Source: Methanotrichaceae archaeon
GTDB taxonomy: Archaea > Halobacteriota > Methanosarcinia > Methanotrichales > Methanotrichaceae
Direction of reading: 5' to 3'
Assembly: GCA_963803145.1 (NCBI GenBank)
Contig: CAWDLW010000017.1
Span: 160,001-224,000, forward strand
DNA: 64,000 bases
The notes under the pieces are model-generated. The model made no database searches and was not told the DNA's origin. It saw nothing but the letters and a program-made list of their open reading frames with translations. A program made the position numbers and the translations under genes. Shown in pieces: positions 3,242 to 28,551 of this stretch. The stretch's first letter is position 1, and the number at the start of each line of letters is the position of its first letter.

Positions 3242-3256
3242 TAGGAGGAAAGAAAA

Positions 3257-3499
3257 ATGATAGTTCCTATTGATCTATTAATTTTAATATTTCTTGTTTT
3301 AATTACGATAGCGGCGCTGTGGACTAAGGACCTTTTAGCTGCGATAGTCCTGACTGGTGCTTTTAGTTTTATAATGGCAAATGTATGGATGCAACTGGGC
3401 TCAACCGACGTATCGTTTACTGAGGCAGCTGTCGGTGCCGGAGCCTCAACTGCTCTGATGATGGCCTGTCTATCGAGAGTACCGAGGTGGGAGAAATAA
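3257..3499 (+). CDS. Mrp subunit, DUF4040/MbhD-like (split MrpA C-terminal part)
   Basis: DLLAA...DVSFTEAAVGAG motif. Confidence 0.85.
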   Translation: MIVPIDLLILIFLVLITIAALWTKDLLAAIVLTGAFSFIMANVWMQLGSTDVSFTEAAVGAGASTALMMACLSRVPRWEK

Positions 3500-4134: not shown

Positions 4135-4619
4135 CCCCGGAGACGAGAGAATACAAGAGGGACCTCATAATAGAAATGACTACGAATATAATGTTCCCCT
4201 TGACCCTATTATTTGGGTTGTATGTGATGATAGGCTCAAGCGGGACGGGCGGTGGATTCGAAGGTGGAACAGTACTTGCAGCCGCTTTCATCCTTTATAT
4301 AACCGTCTTTGGCCATGAATTGGGCAGATCAGAGATGATGCCGGAGTCTATTAATGTCTTGTTCAAGAGCCTTGGGCTGTTCTTTTACAATGGGGCTGGT
4401 TGGATATGCGTCCTCTTCAGCCTAGGCACTGCGCAATGGCTGAACATGCCCGCATTTTGGCCTGTGACAGAATTCATGGGCGTAGCAGGGGCGAGGTCAT
4501 TTCTGGTGAGTTACATGGTATCGGCGGGCATAGGGTTGACAGTGATGGCAGCATTCGTCTCGCAGTATTTCGATCTGGCATGGAAAGAGGAAGAAGAGAT
4601 GGGAGGTGATGAAGAATGA
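4131..4619 (+). CDS. mrpB: Mrp/Mnh antiporter subunit B
   Basis: GGGFEGG motif (variant of PGGGFQGG) and four TM helices. Confidence 0.85.
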   Translation: MTPETREYKRDLIIEMTTNIMFPLTLLFGLYVMIGSSGTGGGFEGGTVLAAAFILYITVFGHELGRSEMMPESINVLFKSLGLFFYNGAGWICVLFSLGTAQWLNMPAFWPVTEFMGVAGARSFLVSYMVSAGIGLTVMAAFVSQYFDLAWKEEEEMGGDEE

Positions 4620-5071
4620 TGGACTGGATATTCCAACATTTCATTGAAAAATACAACTTCTGGATCGCCATGCTCATCATTATTATAGGTCTTTCTGCAA
4701 CGGTAGTTAAGGAGAATTTCTTAAAGAAACTTATCGGGCTAAGTCTATTTCAATCAGCATTCTTCATGTGGGTCGTATCCCTCGGGGATGTAGGAAGGAA
4801 TATCTTAACTACCTGGGGCTTAAAAACAGGAACCATACCGATTATATGGGAACAGGCAGAGGCGAAAGGATACATATACGTGAATCCCCTGCCCCATGTG
4901 CTCATGCTCACTGGGATTGTCGTGAGCGCTGCTACGACCGCAGTCGCCCTTGCCATTTTGATAAGGATATATCAGCTATACGGGACCATAGAAGAGCCCG
5001 AGATAATTGAGAAAGAGAAGGAATTTGAAAAAGAAGGAGGTGAAGTGAGAAATGCCTCTTCTTCTGGTTGA
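4616..5071 (+). CDS. mrpC: Mrp/Mnh antiporter subunit C
   Basis: NFLKKLIGL and NPLPHVLMLTGIVV signatures. Confidence 0.92.
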   Translation: MMDWIFQHFIEKYNFWIAMLIIIIGLSATVVKENFLKKLIGLSLFQSAFFMWVVSLGDVGRNILTTWGLKTGTIPIIWEQAEAKGYIYVNPLPHVLMLTGIVVSAATTAVALAILIRIYQLYGTIEEPEIIEKEKEFEKEGGEVRNASSSG

Positions 5072-6578: not shown

Positions 6579-8080
6579 TGGAGCTAATGACGCCGTTGTT
6601 TGTCATCCTGTGCCCAGCGATTGCTGCAGCTTTGATCCTGCCATCGAGAAACCATCCGAATATGAGAGAAGGCTGGACTATTGCGGCGAGCTTGGTGATG
6701 TTTTCGCTTGTTCTGTCAATGGCACCGGAGATTCTAAAAGGAGATACAATAAAATATGTATTATTCCATTCGATGTTCAAGGGCATCTATATTGGATTCA
6801 ATGTTGACGCCTTTGGCGAAATATTCGCAATTACCACGTCCTCTCTCTGGATTCTGGTCTCCATCTACTCCATAGGGTACATGCGAACGCTGAAAGAGCA
6901 TGCGCAGACGAGATACTTCTTTGCCTTCTGCCTCGCCATATTTGGAGCGTTGGGAGTTGCTCTCTCTGCAAATTTAATCACCATGTTTATATTTTATGAA
7001 ATAATAACTGTGTCCACATATCCGCTTGTCATACATGAGCAGACACCGGAGGCTTTGAGGGCGGGGCATAAATATTTCGCTTATTTAATAACCGCGGGCG
7101 CCTTCCTTCTCTTCGGGGTGATGACGATCTACTACCTCACCGGAACTACCGAGTTCACAGCCGGGGGAATAAAGGCCCTCGGTTTGGCACCTCAAGCGAT
7201 AGTGATAGTTTTGTTCTTCTGCTTCCTGCTGGGGTTCATGAAGGCCGCGTGGATGCCTTTTCACTCATGGCTGCCCACGGCGATGGTAGCGCCGACACCG
7301 GTAAGTGCTCTACTACATGCTGTGGCGGTGGTTAAAGCTGGCGTCTTTGGCATAGTGCGCCTGGTCTGCTATGTTTACGGCGTGGACCTGATGCATGAGC
7401 TCAACCTGTGGTTGGTATTGGCCATAATTGCAAGCTTTACCATGCTTGTCGGATCCTTCTTCGCCATTGCTCAAGACGACCTTAAAAAGAGGCTTGCATA
7501 CTCCACCATCAGCCAGCTATCCTACATAATTCTGGGTGCATCATTGCTGACAGAGAACGGAGTGCGAGGGGCGATGCTTCACATACCATTCCACGGCTTC
7601 ATGAAGATAACGCTGTTCCTTTGTGCAGGCGCTATTATGGTAGCTACAGGGAAGAGGAAGATAAGCGAGATGGCCGGGATAGGAAAAACGATGCCTATAA
7701 CCATGCTAGCCTTCAGCATAGCTGCGATAGGCATGGTTGGGATCCCACCTGTAGCCGGGTTCATCAGCAAGTTTTATCTCTGCCTTGGGGCATTGGCAGC
7801 AACATCTCCCTATGGATTGATCTTCTTAGCGGTCATCCTGATAAGCTCGTTGCTGGACGTCGTTTATTTCTTCCCCATAATACACACAGCATTCTTCAGG
7901 AAGCCTGTGGGAGATATAACCACGAACGGAGAGGAGAAGAGAAAGGAGGCCCCTCTTTTGATGGTCGTCCCTCTAGCAATAACTGCAATCTTCTCCATCA
8001 TATTCTTCGTATATCCGAATATGTTCTATATCTTCGACCTTGTGAAAATGGCCGTAGGGGATGTCTTCGGAGGCGTATGA
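6578..8080 (+). CDS. mrpD: Mrp antiporter subunit D family protein (second)
   Basis: PFHSWLPTAMVAPTPVSALLHAVAVVKAG and KKRLAYSTISQL motifs. ATG at 6578 overlaps the previous stop. Confidence 0.9.
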   Translation: MELMTPLFVILCPAIAAALILPSRNHPNMREGWTIAASLVMFSLVLSMAPEILKGDTIKYVLFHSMFKGIYIGFNVDAFGEIFAITTSSLWILVSIYSIGYMRTLKEHAQTRYFFAFCLAIFGALGVALSANLITMFIFYEIITVSTYPLVIHEQTPEALRAGHKYFAYLITAGAFLLFGVMTIYYLTGTTEFTAGGIKALGLAPQAIVIVLFFCFLLGFMKAAWMPFHSWLPTAMVAPTPVSALLHAVAVVKAGVFGIVRLVCYVYGVDLMHELNLWLVLAIIASFTMLVGSFFAIAQDDLKKRLAYSTISQLSYIILGASLLTENGVRGAMLHIPFHGFMKITLFLCAGAIMVATGKRKISEMAGIGKTMPITMLAFSIAAIGMVGIPPVAGFISKFYLCLGALAATSPYGLIFLAVILISSLLDVVYFFPIIHTAFFRKPVGDITTNGEEKRKEAPLLMVVPLAITAIFSIIFFVYPNMFYIFDLVKMAVGDVFGGV

Positions 8081-8142
8081 AGATAATATTTCCAAATTTT
8101 ATCTTATCGGAATACCTGGATTGATGTAAGAATGAGGGGAAA

Positions 8143-9402
8143 ATGTCACAATTGCGCCGAATTACCCAACAAATGACCAAGAGATTTATCCTTATGTTGC
8201 CGTTGTTGATGGTGGCCTTCTTAGCTTCAGCCAATCCCGAAATGGCGTTTACCGCTCCCGGTAACATATCTCTCGGCCGAATTCCCCAAGAGGAATGGAA
8301 CAGAACCTTTGGGGGGGCAAGCGATGATGTGGGCACCTGGGTTCAGCAGACGAAAGATGGCGGCTACATCGTCACAGGTTATACGTCATCTTACGGTGCC
8401 GATGCTCCATATTCCTGGCTCATAAAAGCCCAATACAGAGGGGATATCTGGCTGATAAAAACCGATCAGTCGGGGATTTTGGAATGGGACAGAACATTCG
8501 GCGGTTTGGGCAAGGAGCTGGGCTTCTTTGTCCAGCAGACGAGGGATGGCGGTTACATCATCACAGGCGGGAAAAAGTCTTTTTGGATCGGCAATTATCA
8601 TGTTTGGGTTATAAAGACCGATTCGGATGGGATCTTGGAGTGGGACAAAACCTTCGAGGGGCCAGGTGAGGACCTGGGCTTCTCTGTCCAGCAGACAAAT
8701 GATAACGGTTACATCATCGCAGGTTATACAACAATTTCCGACGGCAGAAAGGCCTGGCTCATCAAAATCGATCCGGCGGGGAACAAGGAATGGGACGTAG
8801 TCTTAGGCAAGAAAGATACTGAGGCGGCCTCTGTCCAGCAGACCAAAGATGGCGGTTATATAATTACAGGTTACACATCTTCTTACGGTGCAGGCAAAGA
8901 AGACGTTTGGCTATTAAAGACCGATTCAATCGGCAATATTGAGTGGGTTAATGCCTTTGGCGGGGCCAAGAGTGACATAGGTTTTTCGGTTCAGGAAACG
9001 AATGACGGCGGATATATCATCGCAGGTTCCACAGAATCCTTCGGGCTTGGAATTATGAGTGTCTGGTTGATAAAGACAGATTCGAAGGGAAATAAGGAGT
9101 GGGATAGAACATTCGGCGGGCCCGATTCTGATTCGGGTGCCTGCGTCCAGCAGACTACAGATGACGGTTATATTATCACAGGTTACAACACAACGTCTAT
9201 TGGTGCCTCTAAATTAGGGCGTGCGTGGCTGATAAAGACCGATTCGAATGGATATAAGGAGTGGGACAGAACATTCGGCGGCTCTCGAAATGATTGGGGC
9301 AACTCAGTAGAAGAGACGAAAGATGGCGGTTACATCATAACAGGTGTCACGGAGTCTTATGGCGCAGGCAAGGAGGATGCCTGGCTGATAAAAGTAAAAT
9401 GA
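8143..9402 (+). CDS. Secreted/membrane-anchored repeat protein with seven QQTxDGGYII repeats (beta-propeller-like)
   Basis: N-terminal hydrophobic signal, then seven ~50-aa repeats WDRTFGG...SVQQTxDGGYIITG...WLIKTD. Confidence 0.85.
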   Translation: MSQLRRITQQMTKRFILMLPLLMVAFLASANPEMAFTAPGNISLGRIPQEEWNRTFGGASDDVGTWVQQTKDGGYIVTGYTSSYGADAPYSWLIKAQYRGDIWLIKTDQSGILEWDRTFGGLGKELGFFVQQTRDGGYIITGGKKSFWIGNYHVWVIKTDSDGILEWDKTFEGPGEDLGFSVQQTNDNGYIIAGYTTISDGRKAWLIKIDPAGNKEWDVVLGKKDTEAASVQQTKDGGYIITGYTSSYGAGKEDVWLLKTDSIGNIEWVNAFGGAKSDIGFSVQETNDGGYIIAGSTESFGLGIMSVWLIKTDSKGNKEWDRTFGGPDSDSGACVQQTTDDGYIITGYNTTSIGASKLGRAWLIKTDSNGYKEWDRTFGGSRNDWGNSVEETKDGGYIITGVTESYGAGKEDAWLIKVK

Positions 9403-9449
9403 GCAATGGATGGTTAAAAGAGAAATATAGGATGTCAGGAGGGAAATGG

Positions 9450-9608
9450 ATGGAAAATATTGAAGAAAGAAAGGAGACGAGGGAGAGAAGCGAGTACTTT
9501 TGGCATACCTATTATGGCTTTCCCTCTGAAATGCTTGGCTATGCATTGCTAGTAGTAACTATATTATATTTTGCATTTGTGATCTCAGTTGCCGTAGGTA
9601 TATTGTGA
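9450..9608 (+). CDS. Small single-TM protein in the mrp operon
   Basis: GGAGG SD before ATG 9450; MENIEERK... with a C-terminal hydrophobic helix. Confidence 0.55.
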   Translation: MENIEERKETRERSEYFWHTYYGFPSEMLGYALLVVTILYFAFVISVAVGIL

Positions 9609-9663
9609 TAATGATTAAAATGGGGGATCAATCGTAGATATATGATAAGGAGATGACGAAAGA

Positions 9664-9969
9664 ATGGAAATAATACTTGCAGTGCTCTCCATACTGGGAA
9701 TTGTTGGATACGTTTTTCTTTTCCTCGGAACTACAGAGCCGCGTCATCGTCACGGGGACCTATTCCTCGGAATAGTTGCGTTCACCCTTATTGTAATGGT
9801 ATTGGCAGGTTTATTCATCCAATGGCCCATTGAATTCAGGTGGCAAGACGTAACAGCATTTTACGCGATATATGGTTTCTCAGCCTTCGTCTTTCTTATT
9901 TACGCAGCAAAAGGGTTGCGTCTCTGGCTCACGAAAGAAGAGGATTATTATGAGAAGAGGGGGGTGTAA
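9664..9969 (+). CDS. Small membrane protein preceding the third MrpD
   Basis: Three TM segments, FYAIYGF and EEDYYE C-terminus, AGGAG SD. Confidence 0.75.
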   Translation: MEIILAVLSILGIVGYVFLFLGTTEPRHRHGDLFLGIVAFTLIVMVLAGLFIQWPIEFRWQDVTAFYAIYGFSAFVFLIYAAKGLRLWLTKEEDYYEKRGV

Positions 9970-9974
9970 AGCAG

Positions 9975-11696
9975 ATGATTGACTGGATACATCCAGGACT
10001 TATACTGATCATCGGAGCTTTGCTTGTACCGTTTTTAAAAGGCAAATTGAGGCAGGCATATTTGATTATCCTCCCTCTAGCAGCGTTCATAGACGTTGCT
10101 CTAATGTATACAGGAATATTTGGAGATATTCCTTTCTCAGCCGGGCGTTTGCCCTTTTTAGAATATGAACTCACCTTTGGAAGGGTGGACAAACTGAGCT
10201 TTTTATTTGGACTCATATTCGCCCTAGCCTCAGTCCCGGTGACCATTTACTCGCTGCATGTAAAAAGTAGCAGTGAACACACGGCCCAGCTCATATATGC
10301 GGGAAGTGCGCTAGGTGTAGTTTTTGCGGGCGACCTCATCAGCTTGTATTTCTTCTGGGAGATAATGTCGGTCGCATCCATGCTCGTCATCTGGTACGGA
10401 GAGACGGATAAGTCGCATAGTGCAGGGTTTAGGTATATTATGTGGCACATAGCTGGTGGCATAATTCTGCTGGCAGGCATTGTTACGTATATTGCAAGCA
10501 CAGGCTCAATCGCCTTTAATGCCATCGGCTGGGGAGCTGGTAGTGCTCTTCTGCCATCTCTATTAATTTTCATCGGTTTTATATTAAATGCTGGCGTTCC
10601 CCCGCTTCATGCTTGGCTACCAGATGCTTATCCTGAGTCATCGGTTTCGGGCTCGGTATATTTGAGCATCTATACAACCAAGTCTGCAGTCTATGTTCTG
10701 GCAAGGGGCTTCGCCGGCTTTTGGCCTTTAATATGGCTCGGAGCTATAATGACTGTGTACCCCATCTTCTTTGCAGTCCTGGAGAATAACCTAAGGAGGG
10801 TTCTCTCCTATAGCCTAATCAACCAGGTGGGATTCATGCTATGCGGGATAGGAATGGGCACTGCCCTCTCCATGAATGGCGCAGTTTCTCACGCCTTTGC
10901 CCATATCATCTATAAGGGGCTGCTTTTTATGAGCGTGGGAAGTGTGCTCTATAGGACTGGAACAGCAAAGATCACGGATCTTGGCGGATTATACAAGACA
11001 ATGCCGCTGACCACAATTTTCTGTTTGGTGGGAGCGGCATCAATTTCGGCTTTCCCACTGTTCTCCGGGTTTGTGACCAAAGCGATGGTGGTCCAGGCAT
11101 CGGCAGTCGGAGGGCTGGCTATAGTATATGTTCTTCTGCAGCTTGCCTCAGCAGGTGTATTCGAGCATGCTGGCATAAAGGTTCCTTTCTTCACCTTCTT
11201 TGCCCACGACTCCGGCTTGAAGGCAAAGGACCCGCCAGTCCATATGCTATTAGGCATGGGGATAATGGCATTTTTCTGTATCTTTATCGGGCTATATCCA
11301 CAGCCGCTCTACCAGCTCCTTCCTTACACTGTTGATTTTGAGGCGTTCACAGCGCCCCATGTTGTAGAGACCCTCCAGCTGCTGCTGTTTGCTTCATTTG
11401 CCTTCTTCCTCCTCAAAACCTCTGGAATATACCCACCGGAGCGGAGGACTATTAGCCTCGATACCGACTGGCCATTGAGAATGGCAGCTGGGAAGTTTAA
11501 ATGGTTCATCGAGGGACCGTTAATGAATTTCGGGGCTTGGATGGATGGCAATATGAAGAAGATCGCTGCCGATTTCTCCGCGTTCGGGGGAGAAAAGGAA
11601 GAAAGAGTGCTAATAGGAGTATCCGTGATGTTGGCGCTCCTGTTCCTCGCCCTCTACTTGATAGTGGAGTTGGTGTATAGATCAATTGCTCATTAA
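9975..11696 (+). CDS. mrpD: Na+/H+ antiporter subunit D (third, long form)
   Basis: PPLHAWLPDAYPE, YTTKSAVYVLARGF, RRVLSYSLINQVGFM and HAGIKVPFFTFF motifs. Confidence 0.9.
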   Translation: MIDWIHPGLILIIGALLVPFLKGKLRQAYLIILPLAAFIDVALMYTGIFGDIPFSAGRLPFLEYELTFGRVDKLSFLFGLIFALASVPVTIYSLHVKSSSEHTAQLIYAGSALGVVFAGDLISLYFFWEIMSVASMLVIWYGETDKSHSAGFRYIMWHIAGGIILLAGIVTYIASTGSIAFNAIGWGAGSALLPSLLIFIGFILNAGVPPLHAWLPDAYPESSVSGSVYLSIYTTKSAVYVLARGFAGFWPLIWLGAIMTVYPIFFAVLENNLRRVLSYSLINQVGFMLCGIGMGTALSMNGAVSHAFAHIIYKGLLFMSVGSVLYRTGTAKITDLGGLYKTMPLTTIFCLVGAASISAFPLFSGFVTKAMVVQASAVGGLAIVYVLLQLASAGVFEHAGIKVPFFTFFAHDSGLKAKDPPVHMLLGMGIMAFFCIFIGLYPQPLYQLLPYTVDFEAFTAPHVVETLQLLLFASFAFFLLKTSGIYPPERRTISLDTDWPLRMAAGKFKWFIEGPLMNFGAWMDGNMKKIAADFSAFGGEKEERVLIGVSVMLALLFLALYLIVELVYRSIAH

Positions 11697-15387: not shown

Positions 15388-15771
15388 TCAGTGGAAGAGC
15401 AAGCCCAGCAGTTTCAGAGTGGCTATATCAGAGGATGGCAGATCCGCAGTGCTTAAAGCTGCTCCCAAACCTATTGAAAGGCACCCAATTATCAGAAAAC
15501 CCATCCGAGCTCTTCCACCCCCGATGGGTAGAAGTCTCACTGCACTGATAAGCATCACAAGCGGCAATATCGGCGTGAGGATCGATGCAGAGAGCCCTAG
15601 CGTAACCACTATACTTGATAGGACAACCATAAGAAAGGCCCCCTTTAATAAAGAGGCATTTCTATGATCAAACTGGAATATTTGCCGGATGAACGCGCTG
15701 CCTAACGACCCAGCCAACACTACACCAATTAAAGCAATCACACCTAGTTCAAAGGGATTCCCCTGCAGCAT
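15388..15771 (-). pseudogene. Short divergent DUF1646-derived fragment
   Basis: VVTLGLSASILTPILP...LSIGLGAAL aligns with the middle of the DUF1646 paralogs. It has its own SD and BRE-TATA (about 15849-15864). It could be a functional miniprotein. Confidence 0.55.
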
Positions 15772-16071: not shown

Positions 16072-17811
16072 TTAGGCACCAAGTCCCAGAGTGGGGGTGA
16101 ACTTCAGCACGAAGATTAGTACGTAGAAAATCGCGCCCAGAACAAGCCCCATTGGAACTCCGAGCTTCGCATACTCTTTGCTGGTAATCCCCAGCTTTCC
16201 TGCTGATATGATGTTGGGGATATTGCCGGGGATCAGCATTCCGCCGAAGATCAGCAGACCCATCAGAGCAGCGGTGATCTGAGCCTGGCTCATTGCCGGT
16301 GAGACCTCGGCCGCAGTCAGAGTGGCGTTGTCCAGAATGGCCGAAACCATGTTGAGCCAATACAGGACAAAATCCGGGATGTGGGTGAAGTACTTGAAGA
16401 TGATGACCTCCATTCCGGCGCCGAGAAGGAACAGAGCGGCTACGAATACGTAAACCTTGGCTGCTCTGACAACGACCTCTCTTAAGCCACCTTCGTCAAT
16501 GATCTCATTGACCTCTGCCTTGCCTGCCCTCTTGCCCACATAAAATGCTCCGAATGCAGCGCATAAGGCACAGCCCAGGATGATGAGTACACCAAGCTGG
16601 TCGAAGAGATACCAGAAGCCTGCGTGATAGGGCATACCCTGCAGTTTGGTTATGGCGATAGTGGACAGAGGCTCACCTAATGGAGTAAGCACTGCTCCAA
16701 GGCCTATGGAGAAGCAGCTGATTATGACAAGGTTGATCTTATCCTTGCGCTCCATTGGCATCAGGTTGACGATCTCAACAAGGAACAGCGATGTGATGAT
16801 GGCTGTGATAACGCTTGAGATCATTCCACAGAGGAATACAATTGCGAAGACCAGCATAGGCATGGGAAATGATTTCACTAGGCCATTCATAACGCCCTTG
16901 AAGGCATTTTTCCCATAGAAGAATACAAGGCCTGCAACCAGTACAGCGGGCACTATGCCCTTCAGAACCGGCTCCTCTGCGGCCAGCTTTACAAGGCCGA
17001 ATTCCCATTTGCTGGTTAGGGTGACTGCTAGGGCACCCATGACAAACAGAAATGCCTCAAGGTTCTTTTCAGCCAGCTTCACCTTGAAAGGTGCAGCCAA
17101 TACTGTTAGGAATATAGCAAACAAGCCTATATCGACAGGGGTTACACCGTAGCCTAAGTCGAGCGGCGCTGTCTGCATCATCGAGATCCTGCTTCCGGCT
17201 GCTGCAGCTATAATAGCCACTGCTAAACTTGCCGCAGCTGATATGAGCATATAGAACCCATTATCATATCTTGCTGAATGGGATCTTAGGTACCTGGTTA
17301 TGCCGACGAAGGATATGCCCCAGATTACCAGCACTGCCAATGCCGTCATGATATTGGCAGTGGTAGCTAGACCCATTTCGGCCGGAGCGGTCTGTACAAT
17401 CAAGAATCTGCTTGCTGTTGCAGCCGCTATTGCCACAGCTAAACTCACAAATATGGAGAATAGCATGTAAAACCCATTGTCGTATTGAGTGGAATGGGAT
17501 TTCATATATCTGGTTATGCCGACGAAGGATATGCCCCAGATTATCACCACTGCGATAGCCGTTATGACGTCGGCGGTTGTTGCCAATCCCATGCCGACAG
17601 GGGTCGTCTGCACCATCAAAAGCTTGCTTGCAGTTGCAACCGCTATTGCCACAGCTAAACTCACAAATATGGAGAATAGCATGTAAAACCCATTGTCTTC
17701 ATGGATCGAATGTGATCTTACGTATTTGTTTACCCCTGCGAAGGATAAACCCCAGGTTATTAGTGTTGCTATTGGGGTTATCATGCTTGTGGTTTCTATC
17801 CCTGCATACAT
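16072..17811 (-). CDS. DUF1646 family putative cation transporter with three N-terminal 72-aa membrane repeats
   Basis: The C-terminal ~360 aa closely match the 372-aa paralogs (EKNLEAFLF, LTPLGEPLSTI, GGMLIPGNIPN). The N-terminus has three WGxSFxG...SHS...DNGFYML repeats. Confidence 0.9.
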   Translation of the reverse strand: MYAGIETTSMITPIATLITWGLSFAGVNKYVRSHSIHEDNGFYMLFSIFVSLAVAIAVATASKLLMVQTTPVGMGLATTADVITAIAVVIIWGISFVGITRYMKSHSTQYDNGFYMLFSIFVSLAVAIAAATASRFLIVQTAPAEMGLATTANIMTALAVLVIWGISFVGITRYLRSHSARYDNGFYMLISAAASLAVAIIAAAAGSRISMMQTAPLDLGYGVTPVDIGLFAIFLTVLAAPFKVKLAEKNLEAFLFVMGALAVTLTSKWEFGLVKLAAEEPVLKGIVPAVLVAGLVFFYGKNAFKGVMNGLVKSFPMPMLVFAIVFLCGMISSVITAIITSLFLVEIVNLMPMERKDKINLVIISCFSIGLGAVLTPLGEPLSTIAITKLQGMPYHAGFWYLFDQLGVLIILGCALCAAFGAFYVGKRAGKAEVNEIIDEGGLREVVVRAAKVYVFVAALFLLGAGMEVIIFKYFTHIPDFVLYWLNMVSAILDNATLTAAEVSPAMSQAQITAALMGLLIFGGMLIPGNIPNIISAGKLGITSKEYAKLGVPMGLVLGAIFYVLIFVLKFTPTLGLGA

Positions 17812-17859: not shown

Positions 17860-18627
17860 TTAGAAATTGGCTCCAAACGCCACCCCAACAAGGAGAATGG
17901 CCCCTACAAACATGCACGCCTTTGCACTCCACATTGCTATATTTTTAACTCCGTTTTTAAGTCCGTCTCTGCCTTCCGTGGCCTGTATCTCCATAGCAGT
18001 CACCTTCTCCTCAATGAAGAAAACGCTGATCAAACCGAGCGCCAGTATACATAGTATTACATACAGGCTTTGCAGTTCCAATGGCAAGACATTTATCGAA
18101 GGGAGAGATCCCTGCATTTTCGTTATGGCTATTGTAGAGTACGGCGTCTCTACCAGAGCCAGAACTGCTCCCAGGCATATGGATAAGCTTGCCATTATCG
18201 TAAGTTTTGCCCGTGTCCTGCGCTTAAGAGGCAGATGGTTCACCACCTCCACTAGCAAGAAGAACGGTAGTATAGGTGTGATGATGATTGCAGAAAGTCC
18301 AAGCACGACTACAATCTCCAAGAATATTACTTTCAGAGTGATTTCATCCAGGAGAGCGTCATTTATGCCGCGCAAAAAGTGTGGGCCTAGGTAGTGTGCT
18401 GTCAGTCCAGCCACCAACACAGATAGCACGATACCGACTATGATCGGTTCCTGGATTGCCTCCTCCACGAGACCTATGTGCCAGGATCTGGATATAGCAA
18501 CAGCGCATATGCCCATCAGAAATAAGAAAGTTTCAATGTTTTGTTCAATCCTTTTAACCAAGAGCGGACCTAAAAGTATGGCCACAAATATTGGAATCAA
18601 TCCTAATTCAACTGGGGCAAGCGCCAT
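17860..18627 (-). CDS. Divergent half-length DUF1646-like membrane protein
   Basis: IEQNIETFLFLMG and EEAIQEP match the DUF1646 N-half; the LDNATL/GGMLIPGNIPN C-terminal part is absent. GGTGA SD and BRE-TATA upstream. Confidence 0.8.
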   Translation of the reverse strand: MALAPVELGLIPIFVAILLGPLLVKRIEQNIETFLFLMGICAVAISRSWHIGLVEEAIQEPIIVGIVLSVLVAGLTAHYLGPHFLRGINDALLDEITLKVIFLEIVVVLGLSAIIITPILPFFLLVEVVNHLPLKRRTRAKLTIMASLSICLGAVLALVETPYSTIAITKMQGSLPSINVLPLELQSLYVILCILALGLISVFFIEEKVTAMEIQATEGRDGLKNGVKNIAMWSAKACMFVGAILLVGVAFGANF

Positions 18628-19204: not shown

Positions 19205-19633
19205 TTATGAGAAATGTTGAGATTGGATACCAATTATGGTTAGATTTAGTATATAAATGCCCCAACAGAATGATAGAAGGCCGATGAATATTAAGCTGAG
19301 CCCTGTGGGATTATGGAATATCATTGTTTCCCGGATGCCATTTATTGAGCCGATTAATCCGCTAAATGCCATTAGCATACCCATGATGCCCGCGGATAAT
19401 CTACAGAGTCTTGCGATCCATTCATTTCCTATAAATTGTCTGGTGGCAGGATCGACTAAGCTTAGCACATATATTCCTCCAAACGATGTGAAAATGCCAG
19501 CCGTGATAACAGTAAGGTCTCCCTTGCCGATGACTAATGCCATCGTCCCCCCAATTATCACCAACAGCCATCCAGTGGCAACAGTCGCGGTTCTTCTCGG
19601 CTTCATTAGTGCTCTCTCATTTAACATTACCAT
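19205..19633 (-). CDS. Hypothetical 4-TM membrane protein
   Basis: Four hydrophobic segments; no family recognised. Confidence 0.5.
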   Translation of the reverse strand: MVMLNERALMKPRRTATVATGWLLVIIGGTMALVIGKGDLTVITAGIFTSFGGIYVLSLVDPATRQFIGNEWIARLCRLSAGIMGMLMAFSGLIGSINGIRETMIFHNPTGLSLIFIGLLSFCWGIYILNLTIIGIQSQHFS

Positions 19634-20533
19634 CGATGATTAAATATTCCATTATCGAGAGGCCCATCCGAGGCCGCCAGCCAATCCACAAAGCTGATCC
19701 ACAAAGAACTGCAATGAGGCTCAAAGGCACAAAGGACTCACAATTTGGGTGCCTTCATAGCATAAAAGCATCTACGATTGCGGCTCCTTGAGTGAACTTT
19801 CTGTTGAGTTCTGATTGGCTATCTCCTATCCAATTCAGAACCACCAGAAATACTCTAGATACCGCCGACAAATTCTCATGGTGGAATGAGTTCAGCCATG
19901 CTTACAGGAGCTAAGGCAGACCAGACACTGATGGGAACATTACGGTAGCTAGAACAGCCAGGCACAACGTTCCAAGCAAAAAGGCTATTGCAAGCGTTTT
20001 ATCGCTCATTTCGACCTCCTTTTCTCATCGATTTACCATTTATTTCAATGAACAATTTAGTATTTATGCTTTTCTTGAAAGGTATGAAACAGAGAACAAA
20101 TATTTGGAAATATAATTATGTGCCTTAAAATTAATATTAACGATAAAAAAGACATTTAAGCGCATTTGACGCCAATTTTAAGTAACAGTGGCCAAGAAGA
20201 TTAATATGATGTTTTCTCAATAATTCATGATATTAGATATCCAAAATGGATAATAGCTCTCAAAGTATTTAAACTTCTAATCATGTGTCCAAAGAAAAAA
20301 ACACCAAGATGTATTCAATAACAAACCTAATTGAACTTATTGATTAAATTGCTAGCTATTTCTGAAAATTAATCGTTAAATGGGGAATCTTAAATTGATT
20401 AGGTATAAAGCAGGATTTATTTCAAATAACCAAAAATCCTTATGATTGTTATAATATGCGTAATTGGTTCGCCATGTTTACGAATATATGTTAAAAAAAG
20501 GGGCGGTCCTTTTGATGATCCTGGTTAAAGCCT

Positions 20534-21394
20534 TCAGCCAGCCCTAACCACTAGAACCGGCCTGTCAGCCATCCTAGCCACATCATATGTTGTGCTCCCC
20601 ACAGTCAACTGCTCGAGCCATCCTTTTCCATGAGAGCTCATCGCGATCAAGGATACATCCTCTTTATTTGCAAGGTTGCTTATCTCCTGGGCTGGGTTAC
20701 CTATGCTGGCATAAACCTTTGCCTTCAGGCTGTCTCTCTCAAGCTCCTCCTTGATGGCATTTAGCTTTTCAATTGCGTCCTCTCTATGGGCGTCTATATC
20801 ATTCCAAGTCTCTCCCCGGAAAACCACATGCTGCAGCACTATTTCCCCAATACCCTCGATCCCCTTTACGAAGCCGAGCGTCTCTGCCGCAGGCTCTGAA
20901 AAATCAGTCGGACAGAGCACCTTAGAGAAGGGTTGAGAGCAAACCATGTCCAGAGTCGGTCCTTCGCGATCATCCAGCATCTTATAGCGCATGAGCAGGA
21001 GGTTTGTATTCCCATAGCGCAAGACATCTTTAGCGACATTTCCAAGGAGGATGCCTTCGACGAGCCCCTTCCCGCGTGCCCCCATTGCAATCAGGGAAAC
21101 TTTTTCTTCATCGGCAATCTTCTGTACCATGCGTGGGATCGCGCCCTCCATGATGGTCTCCGTTTTCGTCTTGACATTGAGATCGCTGCCCTCCAGGAAC
21201 TTCTTCTGCTCGGCCAGCTTGACTTTGGCCTCTTCGATCCGTCCACCTGGGTCCCATACCCTGGCGAGAGGGTCCGCCGGGCCGATGATGTGTAGGAGTA
21301 CAACATCTTTGACGCCAGGAAGCGCTTTTATACACTCAATAACCTTCTGCGAATGCTTTGAGAAGTCTGTAGGCACAAGAACCTTTTCAAACAT
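20534..21394 (-). CDS. Universal stress protein (tandem USP domains)
   Basis: MFEKVLVPTDFS...IAMGARGKG...LLGNVA, with a second domain FSKVLCPTDFS...MSSHGKG...GSTT. Confidence 0.92.
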   Translation of the reverse strand: MFEKVLVPTDFSKHSQKVIECIKALPGVKDVVLLHIIGPADPLARVWDPGGRIEEAKVKLAEQKKFLEGSDLNVKTKTETIMEGAIPRMVQKIADEEKVSLIAMGARGKGLVEGILLGNVAKDVLRYGNTNLLLMRYKMLDDREGPTLDMVCSQPFSKVLCPTDFSEPAAETLGFVKGIEGIGEIVLQHVVFRGETWNDIDAHREDAIEKLNAIKEELERDSLKAKVYASIGNPAQEISNLANKEDVSLIAMSSHGKGWLEQLTVGSTTYDVARMADRPVLVVRAG

Positions 21395-21470
21395 AAATAG
21401 CTCACCGATTGTAATCATAATTCATCACATTTCAATTTATCTACGATGATTAGAGTTGCAAAGGATACAC

Positions 21471-21776: not shown

Positions 21777-23132
21777 CTAGAGGAACCCGACGGCGCCATG
21801 ATTATCACGCGTGAGGAATTTTATCAGATCGCCAGAAGTGATGAATCCCCAGAGCACTCCTTTATCCACAACTACGAGCTGGTTTGCGTTCGTCTTATTT
21901 AATATCTTTATCGCGTTAATTATAAACTCATCCGAGTTAATGGTCATGAAACCATAGGTTACGATATCCTCTACTTTCAAATCGGTTCTACCTTCTGCTA
22001 CCACTCTAGCTACATCTAACATGTTTATAAGACCAGGTGGTCTGGTTTCAACGATGGCCTCACGAACACCATTATTGATCAATATCTTGGATGCCTCCTG
22101 AAGAGAGGCATCGGCTCTGATGCGGACTGCACGCCGAGCAATCTTGCCAACTGAGATTCTGGGAATCGAGATAATCTCTTCCACATCTAGGATAAGTCTG
22201 TTTAGTATGTAGTCTTGTCCCATTAACTTGCCACGAATGTATAGGTTGTTAAAAGTAATGGGCCCAACCTCGATCTCATCCCCTATGTCGAAGTTTCTGA
22301 TATTGCCGATTATGCGAATAAGTCCATTGCGTTGCTGGTAGGGGCGCATGACATTATTAAAGATTATTTCGTTTGCATTTACGCCCTCAACTGCTACACC
22401 ATTTCTGATAACAGGTACGGCTATTTCGCTTCCGTCTCCGTTGTGGTCTAAGCCTAAGGTCTCGAATGCTGCATCCGTGGCCTTATAGCCACCCCTGGGA
22501 CCAGTGACGCTTTCTACTAGACATAAGACCTTCAGAGATTGCATTTGGTTCCTTATTGTTCCAGGGTGTCGGTTTATCAACTCTGCGATCTCCTTGCTCT
22601 TGGTAGCCAGGCTCCCTTGGCGGTGAAGGTTGATCAAAGTGGTTAATGTTTCCCTCTGACCTGGTGTTAATTCTATTTTGACCCCCAGACTAAGTAATCC
22701 GATAGCAGCTATGCCAATTATTGTATATGGGTAAGGAATCGCAAAGAAGTTCGTGGTAAATGGCGACCCCCCAAATCTCATAGATGTTATTGGGGAGATA
22801 GGCGAATCAACAATAGTCATTGCTCCCAAGGCTGTAGAGAGACCTCCCATCATCACAAATTTTGTCATTGCCCTGCGATCGAAGAAAATGAGGAGTGCGA
22901 TCGCACCGAGCATTAAGAACGAAAGTATCGGTGTGATTAAAATAGCTAATAGCCCTAGCATGACTACAGCCACGGTTAATACTACATTAGGCGGATTTTT
23001 TTGCAACACAGAGGCCAATTTGCTATCGAACCATAACTCTCTGCGACGGACTAATGCTTTTAATAAAGGCATAGCTAGTGCTATAGCTACCACAGCATTC
23101 GAATACAACTTTGATAGATATTGCCGTAGCAT
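21777..23132 (-). CDS. Membrane-anchored HTH-CBS transcriptional regulator (COG2524-like) with a DUF1646-derived N-terminal domain
   Basis: ELTPGQRETLTTLINL...IAELINRHPGTIRNQMQSLKVLCLVESVTGPRGGY winged HTH and a C-terminal CBS pair. The N-terminal 150 aa are hydrophobic and align with 17860-18627. Confidence 0.85.
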   Translation of the reverse strand: MLRQYLSKLYSNAVVAIALAMPLLKALVRRRELWFDSKLASVLQKNPPNVVLTVAVVMLGLLAILITPILSFLMLGAIALLIFFDRRAMTKFVMMGGLSTALGAMTIVDSPISPITSMRFGGSPFTTNFFAIPYPYTIIGIAAIGLLSLGVKIELTPGQRETLTTLINLHRQGSLATKSKEIAELINRHPGTIRNQMQSLKVLCLVESVTGPRGGYKATDAAFETLGLDHNGDGSEIAVPVIRNGVAVEGVNANEIIFNNVMRPYQQRNGLIRIIGNIRNFDIGDEIEVGPITFNNLYIRGKLMGQDYILNRLILDVEEIISIPRISVGKIARRAVRIRADASLQEASKILINNGVREAIVETRPPGLINMLDVARVVAEGRTDLKVEDIVTYGFMTINSDEFIINAIKILNKTNANQLVVVDKGVLWGFITSGDLIKFLTRDNHGAVGFL

Positions 23133-23393
23133 GAATAATCTCCCTTAGAAAGACAACTTCTGCTTATGATTTCTCAGGTTGTTTGCCCCATAATATTCGA
23201 CATGGTTCGTAACCGGATTCTTAATATATCTGATATAGGAACAAATAGGTGTATTTACAATATTTAATGATTTTGGTTAATGAGGATATTTTGTATAACT
23301 CTGAACCCTGGGGGAAGCAAGAATATATGATGCAGGAATAGCGTAATAATAGAAGTCAACGGCAAATTAGGTCTTAAGAAACATGGAAAAGAG

Positions 23394-24730: not shown

Positions 24731-25849
24731 TTAGGCTATTCCCAGTCTCGGGGTAAAGTGCAGAATGTATATCAGCACGAAGAAGAATGCGCCCAGAACA
24801 ATACCGAATGGAACTCCGAGCTTGGCGTATTCGCTGCTGGTGATGCCCAGCTTTCCTGCGGATATGATGTTGGGGATGTTTCCGGGGATCAGCATTCCGC
24901 CGAAGATGAGAAGACCCATCAATGCGGCATTGATTTGATCCTGAGCCATGGCTGGAGATAGCTCGGCTGAGGTCAGGGTTGCGTTATCCAGGATGGCCGA
25001 GAGCATGTTCACCCAGTACAGAACCATGGACGGTATGTGGGTGAAGTACTTATCGATGAGAACGTTCATTCCGTCGCCGAGCAGGAACAGGGCTGCTACG
25101 AATACGTAAACCTTGACAGCTCTGACGATGACCTCTCTGAGGCCTCCCTCATCGGTAATCTCCTTGACCTCTGCCTTGCCGGCCTTGCCAACGTAGAATG
25201 CTGCGAAGGCGGAGACTATGGCACAGCCCAATATGATCAGTACGCCTAGCTGGTCGAATAGGTACCAGAAGGTTGCATAATATGGTGCACCCTGCAGCTT
25301 CGTAATGGCGATTGTTGACAGAGGCTCACCCAGGGGAGTGAGAACTGCTCCAAGACCGATGGAGAAACAGGCGAGGATGACCAGATTGATCTTGTTAATG
25401 CGCTCCATTGGCAGCAGGTTAACAATCTCTACAAGGAACAGCGATGTGATGATGGCTGTGATAACGCTTGAGATCATTCCACAGATAAAGACAATCAAGA
25501 AGACCAGCGCAGGCATTGGAACCGATTTTACCAGGCCGTTCATGACGCCCTTAAAGGCGCCCTTTCCATAGAAGAATATGAGGCCTGCAATGAGCACTGC
25601 TGGGACTATGCCTTTTAATATTGGCTCTGATGCAGCCAGTACGATCAGGTCCATACGCCAGCCGTGAACTCCGGAATTCGTGACGACGCCCGTGGTTACG
25701 GTGACGGCTAATGCGCCCATAACAAACAGGAATGCCTCAAGGTTCTTTTCAGCTAACTTCACCTTGAAAGGTGCAGCCAATACTATCAAGAATATAGCAA
25801 ATAAACCTATATCAACTGCGGTTACTACTTGGCCCGCAATCTCTACCAT
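24731..25849 (-). CDS. DUF1646 family putative cation transporter
   Basis: EKNLEAFLFVMG, LTPLGEPLSTIAI, LDNATL and GGMLIPGNIPNIISAGKL motifs; GAGGTGA SD. Confidence 0.92.
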   Translation of the reverse strand: MVEIAGQVVTAVDIGLFAIFLIVLAAPFKVKLAEKNLEAFLFVMGALAVTVTTGVVTNSGVHGWRMDLIVLAASEPILKGIVPAVLIAGLIFFYGKGAFKGVMNGLVKSVPMPALVFLIVFICGMISSVITAIITSLFLVEIVNLLPMERINKINLVILACFSIGLGAVLTPLGEPLSTIAITKLQGAPYYATFWYLFDQLGVLIILGCAIVSAFAAFYVGKAGKAEVKEITDEGGLREVIVRAVKVYVFVAALFLLGDGMNVLIDKYFTHIPSMVLYWVNMLSAILDNATLTSAELSPAMAQDQINAALMGLLIFGGMLIPGNIPNIISAGKLGITSSEYAKLGVPFGIVLGAFFFVLIYILHFTPRLGIA

Positions 25850-26220: not shown

Positions 26221-27339
26221 TTAGGCTATTCCCAGTTTCGGGGTAAAGTGCAGGATGTAGATCAGCACGAAGTAGAATGCGCCCAAGACGAGACCGAATG
26301 GGACTCCAAGCTTGGCGTACTCGCTGCTTGTGATGCCTAATTTTCCTGCGGATATGATGTTCGGGATGTTGCCGGGGATCAGCATTCCGCCGAAGATGAG
26401 CAGACCCATCAATGCAGCATTGATCTGATCCTGGCCCATGGCTGGAGATAGCTCTGCTGCAGTCAGGGTGGCGTTATCCAGAATTGCCGAGACCATGTTC
26501 ACCCAGTACAGAACCATTGAGGGGATATGGGTGAAGTACTTGTCGATGAGAACGTTCATTCCGTCGCCGAGCAGGAACAGGGCTGCTACGAATACGTAAA
26601 CCTTGACAGCTCTGACGACGACCTCTCTGAGGCCTCCCTCATCGGTAATCTCCTTGACCTCTGCTTTGCCGGCCTTGCCGACATAGAATGCAGCGAAGGC
26701 GGCGACTATGGCACAGCCTAGGACGATCAGTACGCCTAGCTGGTCGAAGAGGTACCAGAAGGTTGCATAATATGGCGCACCCTGCAGCTTCGTAATGGCG
26801 ATTGTTGACAGAGGCTCACCCAGGGGAGTGAGAACTGCTCCAAGGCCGATTGAGAAACAAGCGAGAATGACCAGGTTGATCTTATTCATGCGCTCCATCG
26901 GCATCAGGTTGACGATCTCAACAAGGAACAGCGATGTGATGATGGCTGTGATAACGCTTGAGATCATTCCACAGATAAAGACAATTCCAAAGACCAGCGC
27001 AGGCATTGGAACCGATTTTACCAGGCCGTTCATGACGCCCTTAAAGGCGCCCTTTCCATAGAAGAATATGAGGCCTGCAATGAGCACTGCTGGAACTATG
27101 CCTTTTAATATTGGCTCTGATGCAGCCAGTACGATTAGGTCCATACGCCAGCCGTGAATCCCAGAGCTCGAGACAATACCGGTGGTTATAGTGACGGCTA
27201 CTGCGCCCATAACGAACAGAAATGCCTCAAGGTTCTTCTCAACTATCTTCACCTTGAAAGGTGCTGCACATATTATAACGAATATCAATGCTAAACCAAT
27301 ATCTACTGCGGTAACTACTTGGCCCGCAATTTCTACCAT
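26221..27339 (-). CDS. DUF1646 family putative cation transporter (tandem paralog)
   Basis: Same length (372 aa) and nearly the same sequence as 24731-25849, including ~30 nt of shared 3' flank. Confidence 0.92.
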   Translation of the reverse strand: MVEIAGQVVTAVDIGLALIFVIICAAPFKVKIVEKNLEAFLFVMGAVAVTITTGIVSSSGIHGWRMDLIVLAASEPILKGIVPAVLIAGLIFFYGKGAFKGVMNGLVKSVPMPALVFGIVFICGMISSVITAIITSLFLVEIVNLMPMERMNKINLVILACFSIGLGAVLTPLGEPLSTIAITKLQGAPYYATFWYLFDQLGVLIVLGCAIVAAFAAFYVGKAGKAEVKEITDEGGLREVVVRAVKVYVFVAALFLLGDGMNVLIDKYFTHIPSMVLYWVNMVSAILDNATLTAAELSPAMGQDQINAALMGLLIFGGMLIPGNIPNIISAGKLGITSSEYAKLGVPFGLVLGAFYFVLIYILHFTPKLGIA

Positions 27340-27669: not shown

Positions 27670-28551
27670 CTAACGCGAAATAGCCCCGCCTGGACGGAGG
27701 ATCAGAACCGGCCTGTTCGATGAGTTTGCCACATCATAAGCAGTGCTTCCTATCCTGCCGGTTTTTAGAGATGCCGCGCCCTGGGCGCTCATAGCTATAA
27801 GAGATACATCCAGCTCATCGGCCGCACGGCGTATCTCCTCTATGGCGTTGCCTACGACAACCTTGGGCGTCACAGTCATATTGCCCTGCTTCCAGGCTGA
27901 TGCGATCTCGTTCAGCTTTTCTGTTGTACTTGTTGTCGTCGTATCTATCTCGCCCTTTGTCTCTCCTCGGGATACAACATAAAGCAAGATTATCTCACCA
28001 ATTCCGGGAATGCTCTTGATGAGAGAGGTTGCGGCTTCAGAGGGCTCAGAGAGGTCTGTAGGAACAAGAACCTTTGAGAATATACGTGCACAGTACTTCT
28101 CCAGAGATCCCTTCTCCATATCGCCCAATAGTTTGTATCGCATTATCAGGAGATTCCGATCACCGAGCTGAAGAACACCCCTTGATGAACTTCCAAGAAT
28201 ATCACTGCCAATGAGGCTCCTTCCACGAGCGCCCATTATAACAAGATCCACGTTCTCCTCGTCGGCTATCTTGTTGATCGCACTCCCCACTACATCGCCA
28301 GCGCCGCCAACGGCGAACGTAGATCGTGTTTTAATGGCGACATTCGGAAGCTTGATACGCTTTGCCTCTTCTGCAAGCTTTCTCTCATCATCCCTTACCT
28401 CAGCCACAGGGTCCCAAAACCTCATTATAGGACCTCTAGCTACGACGTGCAACAACATAATTTCTTTCAATCCAGGGATCTCGCCGACACAATCCAAGAC
28501 TTTTTGAGAATATCTTGAGAAGTCGACAGGGACTAAAACCTTTTCAAACAT
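27670..28551 (-). CDS. Universal stress protein (tandem USP domains)
   Basis: MFEKVLVPVDFS, MGARGRS...LGSSS, and a second USP domain. Confidence 0.92.
   Translation of the reverse strand: MFEKVLVPVDFSRYSQKVLDCVGEIPGLKEIMLLHVVARGPIMRFWDPVAEVRDDERKLAEEAKRIKLPNVAIKTRSTFAVGGAGDVVGSAINKIADEENVDLVIMGARGRSLIGSDILGSSSRGVLQLGDRNLLIMRYKLLGDMEKGSLEKYCARIFSKVLVPTDLSEPSEAATSLIKSIPGIGEIILLYVVSRGETKGEIDTTTTSTTEKLNEIASAWKQGNMTVTPKVVVGNAIEEIRRAADELDVSLIAMSAQGAASLKTGRIGSTAYDVANSSNRPVLILRPGGAISR

Follow-up and report, generated by a model that had tools for sequence, protein, structure and literature searches.

Introduction

In trigger-transporter and co-sensor systems such as CadC-LysP, BceS-BceAB and DcuS-DctA, the activity of the regulator depends on its contact, in the membrane, with a transporter. 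CbrA, with its SLC5-like domain, and an Amt-fused histidine kinase are sensors to which a complete transporter domain is fused. Free HTH-CBS regulators, such as the COG2524-type proteins of archaea and CcpN of Bacillus subtilis (an ATP/ADP-responsive repressor), are soluble and join a winged helix-turn-helix (wHTH) to a pair of CBS domains. Here we describe a 451-amino acid (aa) protein of a Methanotrichaceae archaeon in which a regulator of this design follows, in one reading frame, a membrane module related to DUF1646 transporters. Its gene, hereafter the fusion, lies at 21777-23132 on the minus strand of the DNA analysed (the window: 64,000 nucleotides (nt), positions 160,001 to 224,000 of contig CAWDLW010000017.1, assembly GCA_963803145.1), within an island of DUF1646, Mrp and universal stress protein (Usp) genes.

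Transmembrane transcription regulators (TTRs), for example ToxR, TcpP, CadC, BcrR and, in Sulfolobus, ArnR/ArnR1, combine a DNA-binding domain and membrane spans in one polypeptide, as the fusion does. They are widespread in archaea (1,384; 27 % of all TTRs with at least three transmembrane (TM) regions, according to PMC10269533; see also PMC6396743). With its predicted TM region (hydrophobic segments 14-23, 52-81 and 139-149 at KD(11) > 1.4) and its DNA-binding domain, the fusion fits, as predicted from its sequence, the definition of a TTR in PMC10269533. It differs from the known examples in that the membrane part comes first in the chain, with the DNA-binding part, an HrcA-type wHTH and then a CBS pair, on its C-terminal side, and in that its membrane part is a recognizable transporter fragment, whereas TTRs have generic TM helices and an extracytoplasmic sensor. 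The main text of the survey in PMC10269533 mentions no CBS, HrcA, DUF1646, Methanothrix or Methanosaeta; its supplementary lists, outside this search, may include the family.

Compared with the free HTH-CBS regulators, the fusion has the same wHTH and CBS-pair design but carries a membrane module of ~150 aa, whereas the free proteins are soluble; the searchable literature gave no ligand or regulon for any archaeal free member. Like the regulators of trigger-transporter systems, the fusion may contact a transporter encoded nearby, as gene order and co-occurrence suggest for it, but the TM part of those regulators is unrelated to the transporter and that of the fusion is a paralogous transporter fragment. 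The recruitment of a transporter fold into a signalling protein is common to the fusion, CbrA and the Amt-fused kinase. The latter two combine a complete transporter with a kinase, whereas the fusion combines one of two inverted repeats, its site residues lost, with a regulator that would bind DNA directly. As for the transporters themselves, the N-terminal domain of the fusion (N-domain) is homologous to DUF1646 and the elevator superfamily (DASS/VcINDY, Pho90, ArsB) over DUF1646 residues ~81-220, that is, over one repeat only. According to PMC9337991, the function of DUF1646 proteins is unknown, and a role as Na+/H+ antiporters has been predicted by some. The Na+-I riboswitch covered in that paper regulates the same transporter family; it is RNA-based and bacterial, and it has no Rfam match in the island.

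A sequence-only reading of the window, made by a model without database searches, knew of no description of the architecture, and our literature searches found none either, nor one of the accompanying cassette of short, long and mini DUF1646 genes, although papers outside the searched literature may exist. Membrane-bound one-component regulators are known as a class; what appears new is the use, as membrane module, of one degenerate repeat taken from the surrounding transporter family.

Results

A DUF1646-like domain, a wHTH and a CBS pair in one continuous reading frame

The open reading frame (ORF) starts with ATG and is continuous through all of the following domains.

21777..23132, minus strand: whole fusion gene, 451 aa (P0001), from ORF call and Pfam; full-length relatives are conserved
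22677..23132, minus strand: N-domain, residues 1-152, predicted degenerate single DUF1646 repeat unit, from Pfam, hhalign, column comparison, mapping on a DUF1646 model, hydropathy and counts of lysine plus arginine (K+R)
22443..22673, minus strand: winged HTH (HrcA_DNA-bdg), residues 154-230, from Pfam (E 4.9e-28), with identical conservation in fused and soluble clades
22158..22430, minus strand: beta-rich middle domain, residues ~235-325, from AlphaFold strands E239-E322; predicted local distance difference test (pLDDT) of the block ~46-83
21807..22157, minus strand: CBS pair (Bateman module), residues ~326-442, from Pfam, VIA-align and PDB sequence matches

The sequence-only reading had placed a DUF1646-like part in frame with a winged HTH and a CBS pair, and Pfam found all of these domains in the one ORF. 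The DUF1646 family, PF07854, matched residues 23-148 against profile positions 77-198 of 347 (23.9 bits, E 3.2e-5), narrowly above the curated (gathering) threshold of 21.4 bits. PF03444 (HrcA_DNA-bdg) matched residues 154-230 with 97 bits (threshold 21; E 4.9e-28), and PF00571 (CBS) matched two stretches, the last ending at residue 440, with 45 bits (threshold 24; E 1.4e-11). An NCBIfam scan of the fusion returned CBS or Rrf2 matches only, all below threshold, and a PDB sequence search returned CBS-domain chains only.

The codons at the junction (CTG GGG GTC AAA ATA GAA TTA) include no ATG, GTG or TTG, and the N-terminus, the junction and a Shine-Dalgarno (SD)-like AAGGGAG are conserved across the family alignment. 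The fusion is not confined to this assembly, being present in 9 of 105 genomes of the family, and its junction offers no start codon from which the HTH could be translated by itself.

The N-domain as a degenerate DUF1646 repeat unit

The N-terminal ~150 aa had been noted to resemble the 255-aa neighbour encoded at 17860-18627 (called 'short' below), and blastp confirmed the likeness (38 % identity, residues 56-148 against 106-201, E 6e-11). At the level of profiles the similarity to DUF1646 is also present, in Pfam (23.9 bits) and in hhalign, where 34 fused N-domains were aligned with 36 full-length DUF1646 proteins at a probability of 97.2 % (E 4.4e-11), N-domain residues 35-141 matching DUF1646 residues 99-206. 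No similarity was found between the C-terminal half of DUF1646 and the N-domain; the sole second hhalign alignment had a probability of 0.1 %. The fused N-domain covers 122 of the 347 positions of the DUF1646 profile, and the full-length domain with both repeat units is absent.

We mapped the N-domain on an AlphaFold model of the 372-aa DUF1646 protein encoded at 24731-25849 (predicted template-modelling score 0.75, mean pLDDT 74.9). With this model, Foldseek found Pho90 (8r35_A, 8r34_A), VcINDY (5uld_A), NaDC1 and ArsB (10tp_A) at a probability of 1.00, with template-modelling scores of 0.53-0.55 normalized to the query and E values of 5.5e-4 to 5e-2. By its modelled fold, full-length DUF1646 is an elevator-type transporter of the ion-transporter superfamily with a DASS-like fold. 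The elements of the N-domain, a helix (9-27), a helical hairpin (48-84), a broken TM helix (92-118) and a TM helix (129-150), have their equivalents in the long helix H81-109, the hairpin H112-126 / H132-145, the broken helix H150-168 / H176-184 and H194-220 of the model. The invariant TPLGEP segment of DUF1646 lies between the two halves of the broken helix. The central cytoplasmic loop of the model follows directly after H194-220, and it is at the equivalent point that the wHTH of the fusion begins. On these alignments, the fused N-domain is one of the two structural repeat units of a DUF1646 transporter (TM, hairpin, broken TM, TM).

The mean K+R counts of the N-domain loops are 4.1 for 28-47, 3.1 for 85-91 and 1.8 for 151-160, and those of the matching transporter loops 3.1 for 96-111, 2.8 for 146-153 and 5.1 for 221-244; the loops poor in K+R are 119-128 of the N-domain and likewise 185-193 of DUF1646. 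Because this pattern mirrors that of the transporter loops, the N-domain would lie in the native transporter orientation, its last helix leading the chain to the cytoplasm. The positive-inside rule would then put the regulator in the cytoplasm.

Within DUF1646 residues 99-206, 37 columns are invariant among the 36 proteins; the majority of the fused family retains 18 of these and replaces 19. In DUF1646 numbering, E141, E175, N144, N155, S128 and T179 have become A/V, L/S, F/L, R/K, I and P, respectively, so that both invariant glutamates and both invariant asparagines are gone. The equivalents of T131, T171 and R150 are retained, position 109 has an acidic residue or glycine, and D85 is largely conserved. 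In the alignment of the 'short' family, unlike in the fused N-domain, E127 is invariant and N130 nearly so; by inspection of the sequences rather than by scripted mapping, we take these two to be the probable equivalents of E141 and N144. Because the N-domain covers 122 of 347 profile positions and has 19 of 37 invariant columns replaced, it cannot be a transporter alone.

A fold search with the model of the fusion (VIA-wide) returned CBS pairs only, and the ESM Atlas gave no usable match for residues 1-152. A complex prediction with 'short', the core of its neighbour 'long' (220-579) and the N-domain (1-152) scored 0.00 and was counted neither way.

Distribution, selection and split forms

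The same fusion was searched for elsewhere, as the sequence-only reading had advised, and was found in about 50 protein clusters and, at full length, in 9 of 105 species representatives of the family, namely in seven of the 59 representatives of genus g2, in one of the three of genus g4 and, among the three of genus g1, in the window's genome alone. Among the best 120 clusters listed by a protein search, 55 were of fused size (386-476 aa, 53-100 % identical) and 65 were soluble proteins of 288-327 aa. Among these listed matches, PF07854 had been precomputed together with PF03444 and PF00571 in 48 of the 55 fused-size clusters. The public databases name the fused proteins 'CBS domain-containing protein', from Methanothrix or Methanotrichaceae; one relative, P0040, is attributed by its source to M. 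soehngenii. When the N-domain alone was run exhaustively with phmmer against 1.84 billion representatives, only 15 proteins were found: one fused cluster, 13 small proteins with lengths of 82-168 aa, and a short DUF1646 with 248 aa. In a phylum sample of 401 genomes, the 389 genomes from outside the family gave with this query 3 weak matches (E 2e-9 to 7e-9), all of them ordinary DUF1646 frames of 369-390 aa, and no fusion.

The ratio of nonsynonymous to synonymous substitution rates (dN/dS, Nei-Gojobori) of the N-domain was 0.32-0.64 in 15 of 15 pairs from 6 genomes, and that of the HTH-CBS part 0.16-0.40; the N-domain appears to be under purifying selection, somewhat relaxed. Across genomes, identity to the window's protein is 48-64 % for the N-domain and 57-60 % for the HTH-CBS part.

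A split version exists in one genome (G003:C76, L039 9172-12047), where separate ORFs encode the N-domain and the HTH-CBS part, in different frames and with 29 nt between them. A fused gene follows the split pair, and each split half is ~68 % identical to the matching half of that gene. The pair could be a natural fission or a pre-fusion state. P0121 and P0123 are further stand-alone N-domains. As for sequencing runs, a DNA contig of run X1, which is possibly the source sample, spans the fusion junction; contigs of X5 and X6 cover pieces of both halves, and none of them spans the junction.

The regulator half

A free HTH-CBS paralogue was present in 81 of 81 genomes searched, in agreement with the earlier statement that regulators of this kind are normally soluble. 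The archaeal free paralogues are 51-63 % identical to the fusion over residues ~150-442. The 28 fused rows of a 62-row HTH-CBS tree all belong to a single clade (support 100/100), sister to the soluble clade with its 30 soluble rows. The fused clade also has four rows not labelled fused, namely P0086, P0119, P0056 and one G003 row of fused-or-split identity. The fused label needs 2-4 changes on this tree, which therefore allows a single origin followed by later splits.

A comparison of 54 fused with 63 soluble proteins gave 99 positions at which the same residue is at least 90 % conserved in both, among them the recognition-helix residues T192, I193, R194, Q196, M197 and S199 and the GPxGGY wing. 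Five clade-specific differences separate the two sets, and all five are conservative. Judged by its residues, the fused protein is, apart from its tether, an ordinary member of the HTH-CBS regulator family (COG2524-like), and its DNA and ligand are therefore probably the same as, or similar to, those of the free paralogue. The neighbours of the universal soluble paralogue in this genome are an amino-acid kinase, a radical SAM/SPASM protein and PRA-CH, with no adjoining transporter.

With VIA-align, the CBS pair of the fusion matched 2ef7_B (Z 16.0) and the CBS domains of CcpN (3fv6_A, Z 14.9). It also resembles CBS modules of transporters, namely OpuCA (5ks7_B, Z 14.9), CorB (7msu_A, Z 14.5) and MgtE, and it matches many nucleotide-binding Bateman modules. 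The beta-rich domain (~235-325) between the wHTH and the CBS pair is also present in the free paralogues and belongs to no Pfam family.

The DUF1646 cassette and the nearest relative of the N-domain

The other genes of the island are as follows.

2681..11696, plus strand: Mrp-type Na+/H+ antiporter operon, flanking the island
~13575-14647, plus strand: broken full-length DUF1646, whose pieces match N-terminal, middle and C-terminal parts of intact paralogues (I1-I18)
15388..15771, minus strand: stand-alone 'mini' DUF1646, 127 aa, profile positions 71-172, from Pfam and tree
16072..17811, minus strand: 'long' DUF1646, 579 aa, with N-terminal ~72-aa repeats and a full DUF1646, from Pfam and repeat search (D4)
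17860..18627, minus strand: 'short' DUF1646, 255 aa, profile positions 4-245, from Pfam; in 10 of 105 family genomes
19205..19633, minus strand: orf142, hydrophobic cassette protein with orthologues and no Pfam or NCBIfam match
19911..20009, minus strand: conserved unannotated gene of a 32-aa single-TM peptide, from DNA conservation, TATA-like box and SD
20534..21418, minus strand: tandem-Usp gene directly downstream of the fusion, from Pfam and cassette orthologues
23822-24379, plus strand: orf185, beside the fusion, no family match
24731..25849, minus strand: full-length DUF1646, 372 aa, from Pfam, AlphaFold model and fold search
26221..27339, minus strand: full-length DUF1646 paralogue, 372 aa, 93 % identical
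27670..28551, minus strand: second tandem-Usp gene

In every genome with enough contig, the fusion stands among DUF1646, Mrp and Usp genes. Several genomes have the cassette in the order Usp - (32-aa peptide) - orf142 - short - long - X, next to Mrp. The position X is taken by the stand-alone mini in G000, G003:C194, G013 and G080:C121, and probably also in G001, where the pieces are on separate contigs; it is taken by the fusion in G048, G074 and G080:C50, and probably in G054. The order is short - long - fusion - DUF1646 - long - mini in G103:C28 and fusion - DUF1646 - long - mini in G091:C87. The split/fused tandem of G003 is found upstream of an Mrp operon, and the MrpD of that operon shares 89 % identity with the one in the window.

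The 10 family genomes with 'short' all carry a mini or a fused N-domain as well, and among the 95 without it a mini or a fused N-domain occurs in G091 and G095 only, which are 70 % and 78 % complete. We attach no statistic to this co-occurrence because related genomes are not independent.

Fused, split and mini forms have eleven invariant columns in common, and G60, L61, G96, G103, P111, S113 and G122 do not vary even when fused N-domains are compared with stand-alone minis. In a tree of repeat units (49 rows, 110 columns), the fused and split N-domains fall beside the minis and away from 'short' and the core of 'long' (support 95/98), and the fused group is set apart at 99.5/100. By sequence comparison, then, the stand-alone mini is the nearest relative of the fused N-domain. 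The idea that the mini or the N-domain is an upside-down substitute for the C-terminal repeat missing from 'short' was ruled out by inference, given the lack of similarity to the C-terminal half in hhalign and K+R counts that fit the native orientation.

The cassette proteins have characteristic sizes: 'short' has ~255 aa and lacks the second hairpin unit, 'long' has ~510-720 aa, and the mini, of ~100-150 aa, is one repeat unit. The short/long/mini cassette (window 15388-18627; L038, L040, L042, L043, L047, L048) is usually convergent to, or beside, an MrpD-like gene. The N-terminal extension of 'long' (17246-17677) consists of tandem repeats of 216 nt (~72 aa, two hydrophobic helices) with no Pfam or NCBIfam match; their number seems to vary between genomes, where the ORFs have 509, 577-580 or 713 aa. 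NCBIfam matched none of DUF1646, 'short', 'long', orf142 and orf185. Orthologues of orf142 are 54-68 % identical in five other genomes, and orf185 was not found in other islands. The gene of the 32-aa peptide has a DNA identity of 77-83 % across six cassettes from four genera, which exceeds the conservation of the neighbouring proteins; a conserved block of 170-250 nt upstream of orf142, considered as a structured RNA, proved to be this coding gene.

A 211-aa ORF at 14012-14647 is the tail of the broken DUF1646 and not an independent gene for a C-terminal half. In G048, a 390-aa ORF occurs at two sites (L038 2876-4048, minus strand; L050 2513-3685, plus strand), beside 'long' at one and beside a mini remnant at the other, which suggests a rearrangement mediated by an insertion sequence (IS) that separated the mini from the cassette. 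An MtrE gene (PF04206; 29249-30163, plus strand) stands alone by the island, with no other mtr genes among the neighbouring ORFs scanned.

Upstream regions and the search for an operator

The following element lies upstream of the fusion.

23250..23277, minus strand: 28-nt TATA-like box (family D17), 86 % identical to the box upstream of the mini (15838-15865)

With at most one mismatch, a candidate operator word, GATATCCAAAA, is present at 18705, 18700, 20236 and 23625. We dropped it: at 2 mismatches, 40 occurrences were found in the window against 29.5 expected, so that it is not enriched, and it is absent from the orthologous islands. The exact 9-mers common to at least four upstream regions of the island were only AT-rich TATA-like words.

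The region upstream of 'short' (window 18628-19204, minus strand, and orthologous regions; 450-700 nt) has two tandem conserved modules, each with an AT-rich near-palindromic box (TAATAGTTAACAATTA in L040 and L045) ~25 nt upstream of a TATA-like element, CTTTAATATG. In genus g2, the short spacer between 'long' and the fusion gene (at 50-90 nt upstream of the latter in L011, L040, L041 and L038) shows a conservation of 81-88 % and has an imperfect hairpin just before the SD, which could be a processing or translational-control element.

The sequence-only reading had suggested that control of the DUF1646/mrp genes may not be by a riboswitch. Rfam covariance models gave 0 matches at E <= 1 over 12000-30000, and so no Na+-I (DUF1646 motif) riboswitch; across the whole window, 3 tRNAs were the only matches at gathering score.

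Discussion

We propose, giving it about an even chance, that the fusion is a membrane-tethered one-component regulator whose degenerate transporter repeat docks on, or is held by, the DUF1646 proteins of the cassette. Gene order makes docking on the transporter plausible, and the fusion probably links the membrane to the control of a gene island for sodium/proton stress. The membrane module derives from the stand-alone mini-DUF1646 subunit gene of the cassette beside Mrp, and its repeat, in native orientation, would hand the chain through the last helix to a cytoplasmic wHTH, beta-rich domain and CBS pair. The N-domain would no longer bind the transported ion and would serve as an anchor that packs against the DUF1646 proteins of the cassette; the activity of the HTH-CBS part may then depend on the presence or state of the membrane complex, and the CBS pair may add a cytoplasmic ligand input. 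The likely output would be transcription of the cation-stress island, possibly with a wider regulon common to the free paralogue.

Several observations weigh against this proposal. The fusion is accessory: 96 of the 105 family genomes lack it, and both other genomes of the window's genus are among these. In the window it is found outside the mini slot, flanked by orf185 and Usp, and the mini exists there as a gene of its own; the fused gene of G003 is also outside the mini slot, near Mrp and Usp, and the 20 kb read around it contain no full DUF1646. When the whole fusion is modelled with AlphaFold, the pLDDT is below 50 over residues 1-154, and because of this the structural mapping of the N-domain rests on its alignment to the DUF1646 model. 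No DNA target of the regulator was identified, GATATCCAAAA not being conserved in other islands. The cassettes of the fusion-less genomes G013, G025 and G001 have the AT-rich boxes of the 'short' promoter just as well, and because these boxes occur also without the fusion they are not assignable to it. With a recognition helix identical to the one in the universal soluble paralogue, the fusion need not have targets specific to the island; the regulon of the wHTH may be a wider one, or the wHTH may serve another role. Finally, the evidence of expression is one 232-nt contig of an RNA library within the N-domain region, which does not prove transcription and is at most a faint sign of it.

The N-domain might instead be a mere anchor for passive tethering or sequestration, which would keep one copy of the HTH-CBS regulator at the membrane, distant from or near to particular DNA, with control by abundance, regulated proteolytic release or the CBS ligand alone and no specific contact with DUF1646. 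The constraints on the soluble half, indistinguishable from those on the free paralogue, would be expected if so, as would the loss of the polar transporter-site residues, the dN/dS of the N-domain (0.32-0.64) above that of the rest of the protein (0.16-0.40), and the location outside the mini slot in G000 and G003. A mere anchor would not need the invariant hairpin and broken-helix motifs (G60, L61, G96, G103, P111, S113, G122), however, and the module is itself a cassette subunit when it stands alone and co-occurs strictly with 'short'; the persistence of a split, two-gene version makes little sense for a pure tether. We consider this explanation unlikely, though it deserves to be kept in mind.

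To much the same degree we doubt a more elaborate version of docking, in which the mini and the fused N-domain are half-transporter subunits of a single repeat each. Together with 'short', which is truncated, and 'long', which is extended, they would form a heteromeric, sensor-like complex in the membrane, and the fusion would be an integral subunit of it. If true, it would mean a direct relay from the conformation of a cation transporter to archaeal transcription, through the reuse of one inverted-repeat unit.

CBS modules gate transport in OpuA, MgtE and CorB/CNNM, and the fusion could regulate a transporter as one of its subunits instead of acting as a transcription factor, its N-domain being integrated into a heteromeric short/long DUF1646 complex, its CBS pair gating transport in response to adenine nucleotides or ionic strength and its wHTH being a dimerization scaffold. 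It does occupy the slot of a cassette subunit, its CBS pair is like those of transporters (OpuCA 5ks7_B, CorB 7msu_A, MgtE), and no operator was found. That a wHTH which matches the HrcA DNA-binding family at E 4.9e-28 is such a scaffold is difficult to reconcile with a recognition helix at least 90 % conserved in fused and free proteins, and with a free form that is universal (81 of 81) and in this genome has no adjoining transporter. This makes the explanation rather less probable than passive tethering.

The sequence-only reading had cast the protein as a candidate cation sensor, and a self-contained, perhaps homodimeric sensor whose N-domain itself binds a cation (Na+ or a different one) and signals to the HTH would suit the context of Na+/H+ homeostasis. 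The N-domain originates from the hairpin and broken-helix region, the substrate site of elevator transporters, and it retains the equivalents of T131, T171 and R150, an acidic residue or glycine at position 109 and a largely conserved D85. The replacement of E141, E175, N144, N155, S128 and T179, all invariant in the 36 DUF1646 proteins, disfavours the idea; two repeat units jointly form such a site and only one is present, and the positive-inside pattern speaks against an antiparallel pairing that would mimic the native site. We regard this sensor as improbable.

A decaying chimera with a functionless N-terminal part, or an assembly or annotation artefact, as the broken DUF1646 remnants (13575-14647), IS-like ORFs in a related genome and a contamination estimate of 6.77 % might suggest, is very hard to believe for a fusion found in 9 genomes and about 50 clusters with dN/dS < 1, a conserved N-terminus and SD, and an X1 DNA contig (X1 being possibly the source sample) across its junction.

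Archaea of the Methanothrix family are major acetate-consuming methanogens of wetlands, rice soils and anaerobic digesters, and their Na+/H+ economy is tied to energy conservation. Almost nothing is known of how they regulate cation homeostasis, and the fusion is a concrete entry point: the island unites a membrane-rooted regulator with Mrp, several forms of DUF1646 and universal stress proteins. It is also a clear example, from nature, of a single repeat unit that was separated from an inverted-repeat elevator transporter, retained as a stand-alone subunit and then fused to a transcription factor, with split and fused states both extant. The short/long/mini organization may, in addition, help to assign a function to a family known mainly through its bacterial Na+ riboswitch.

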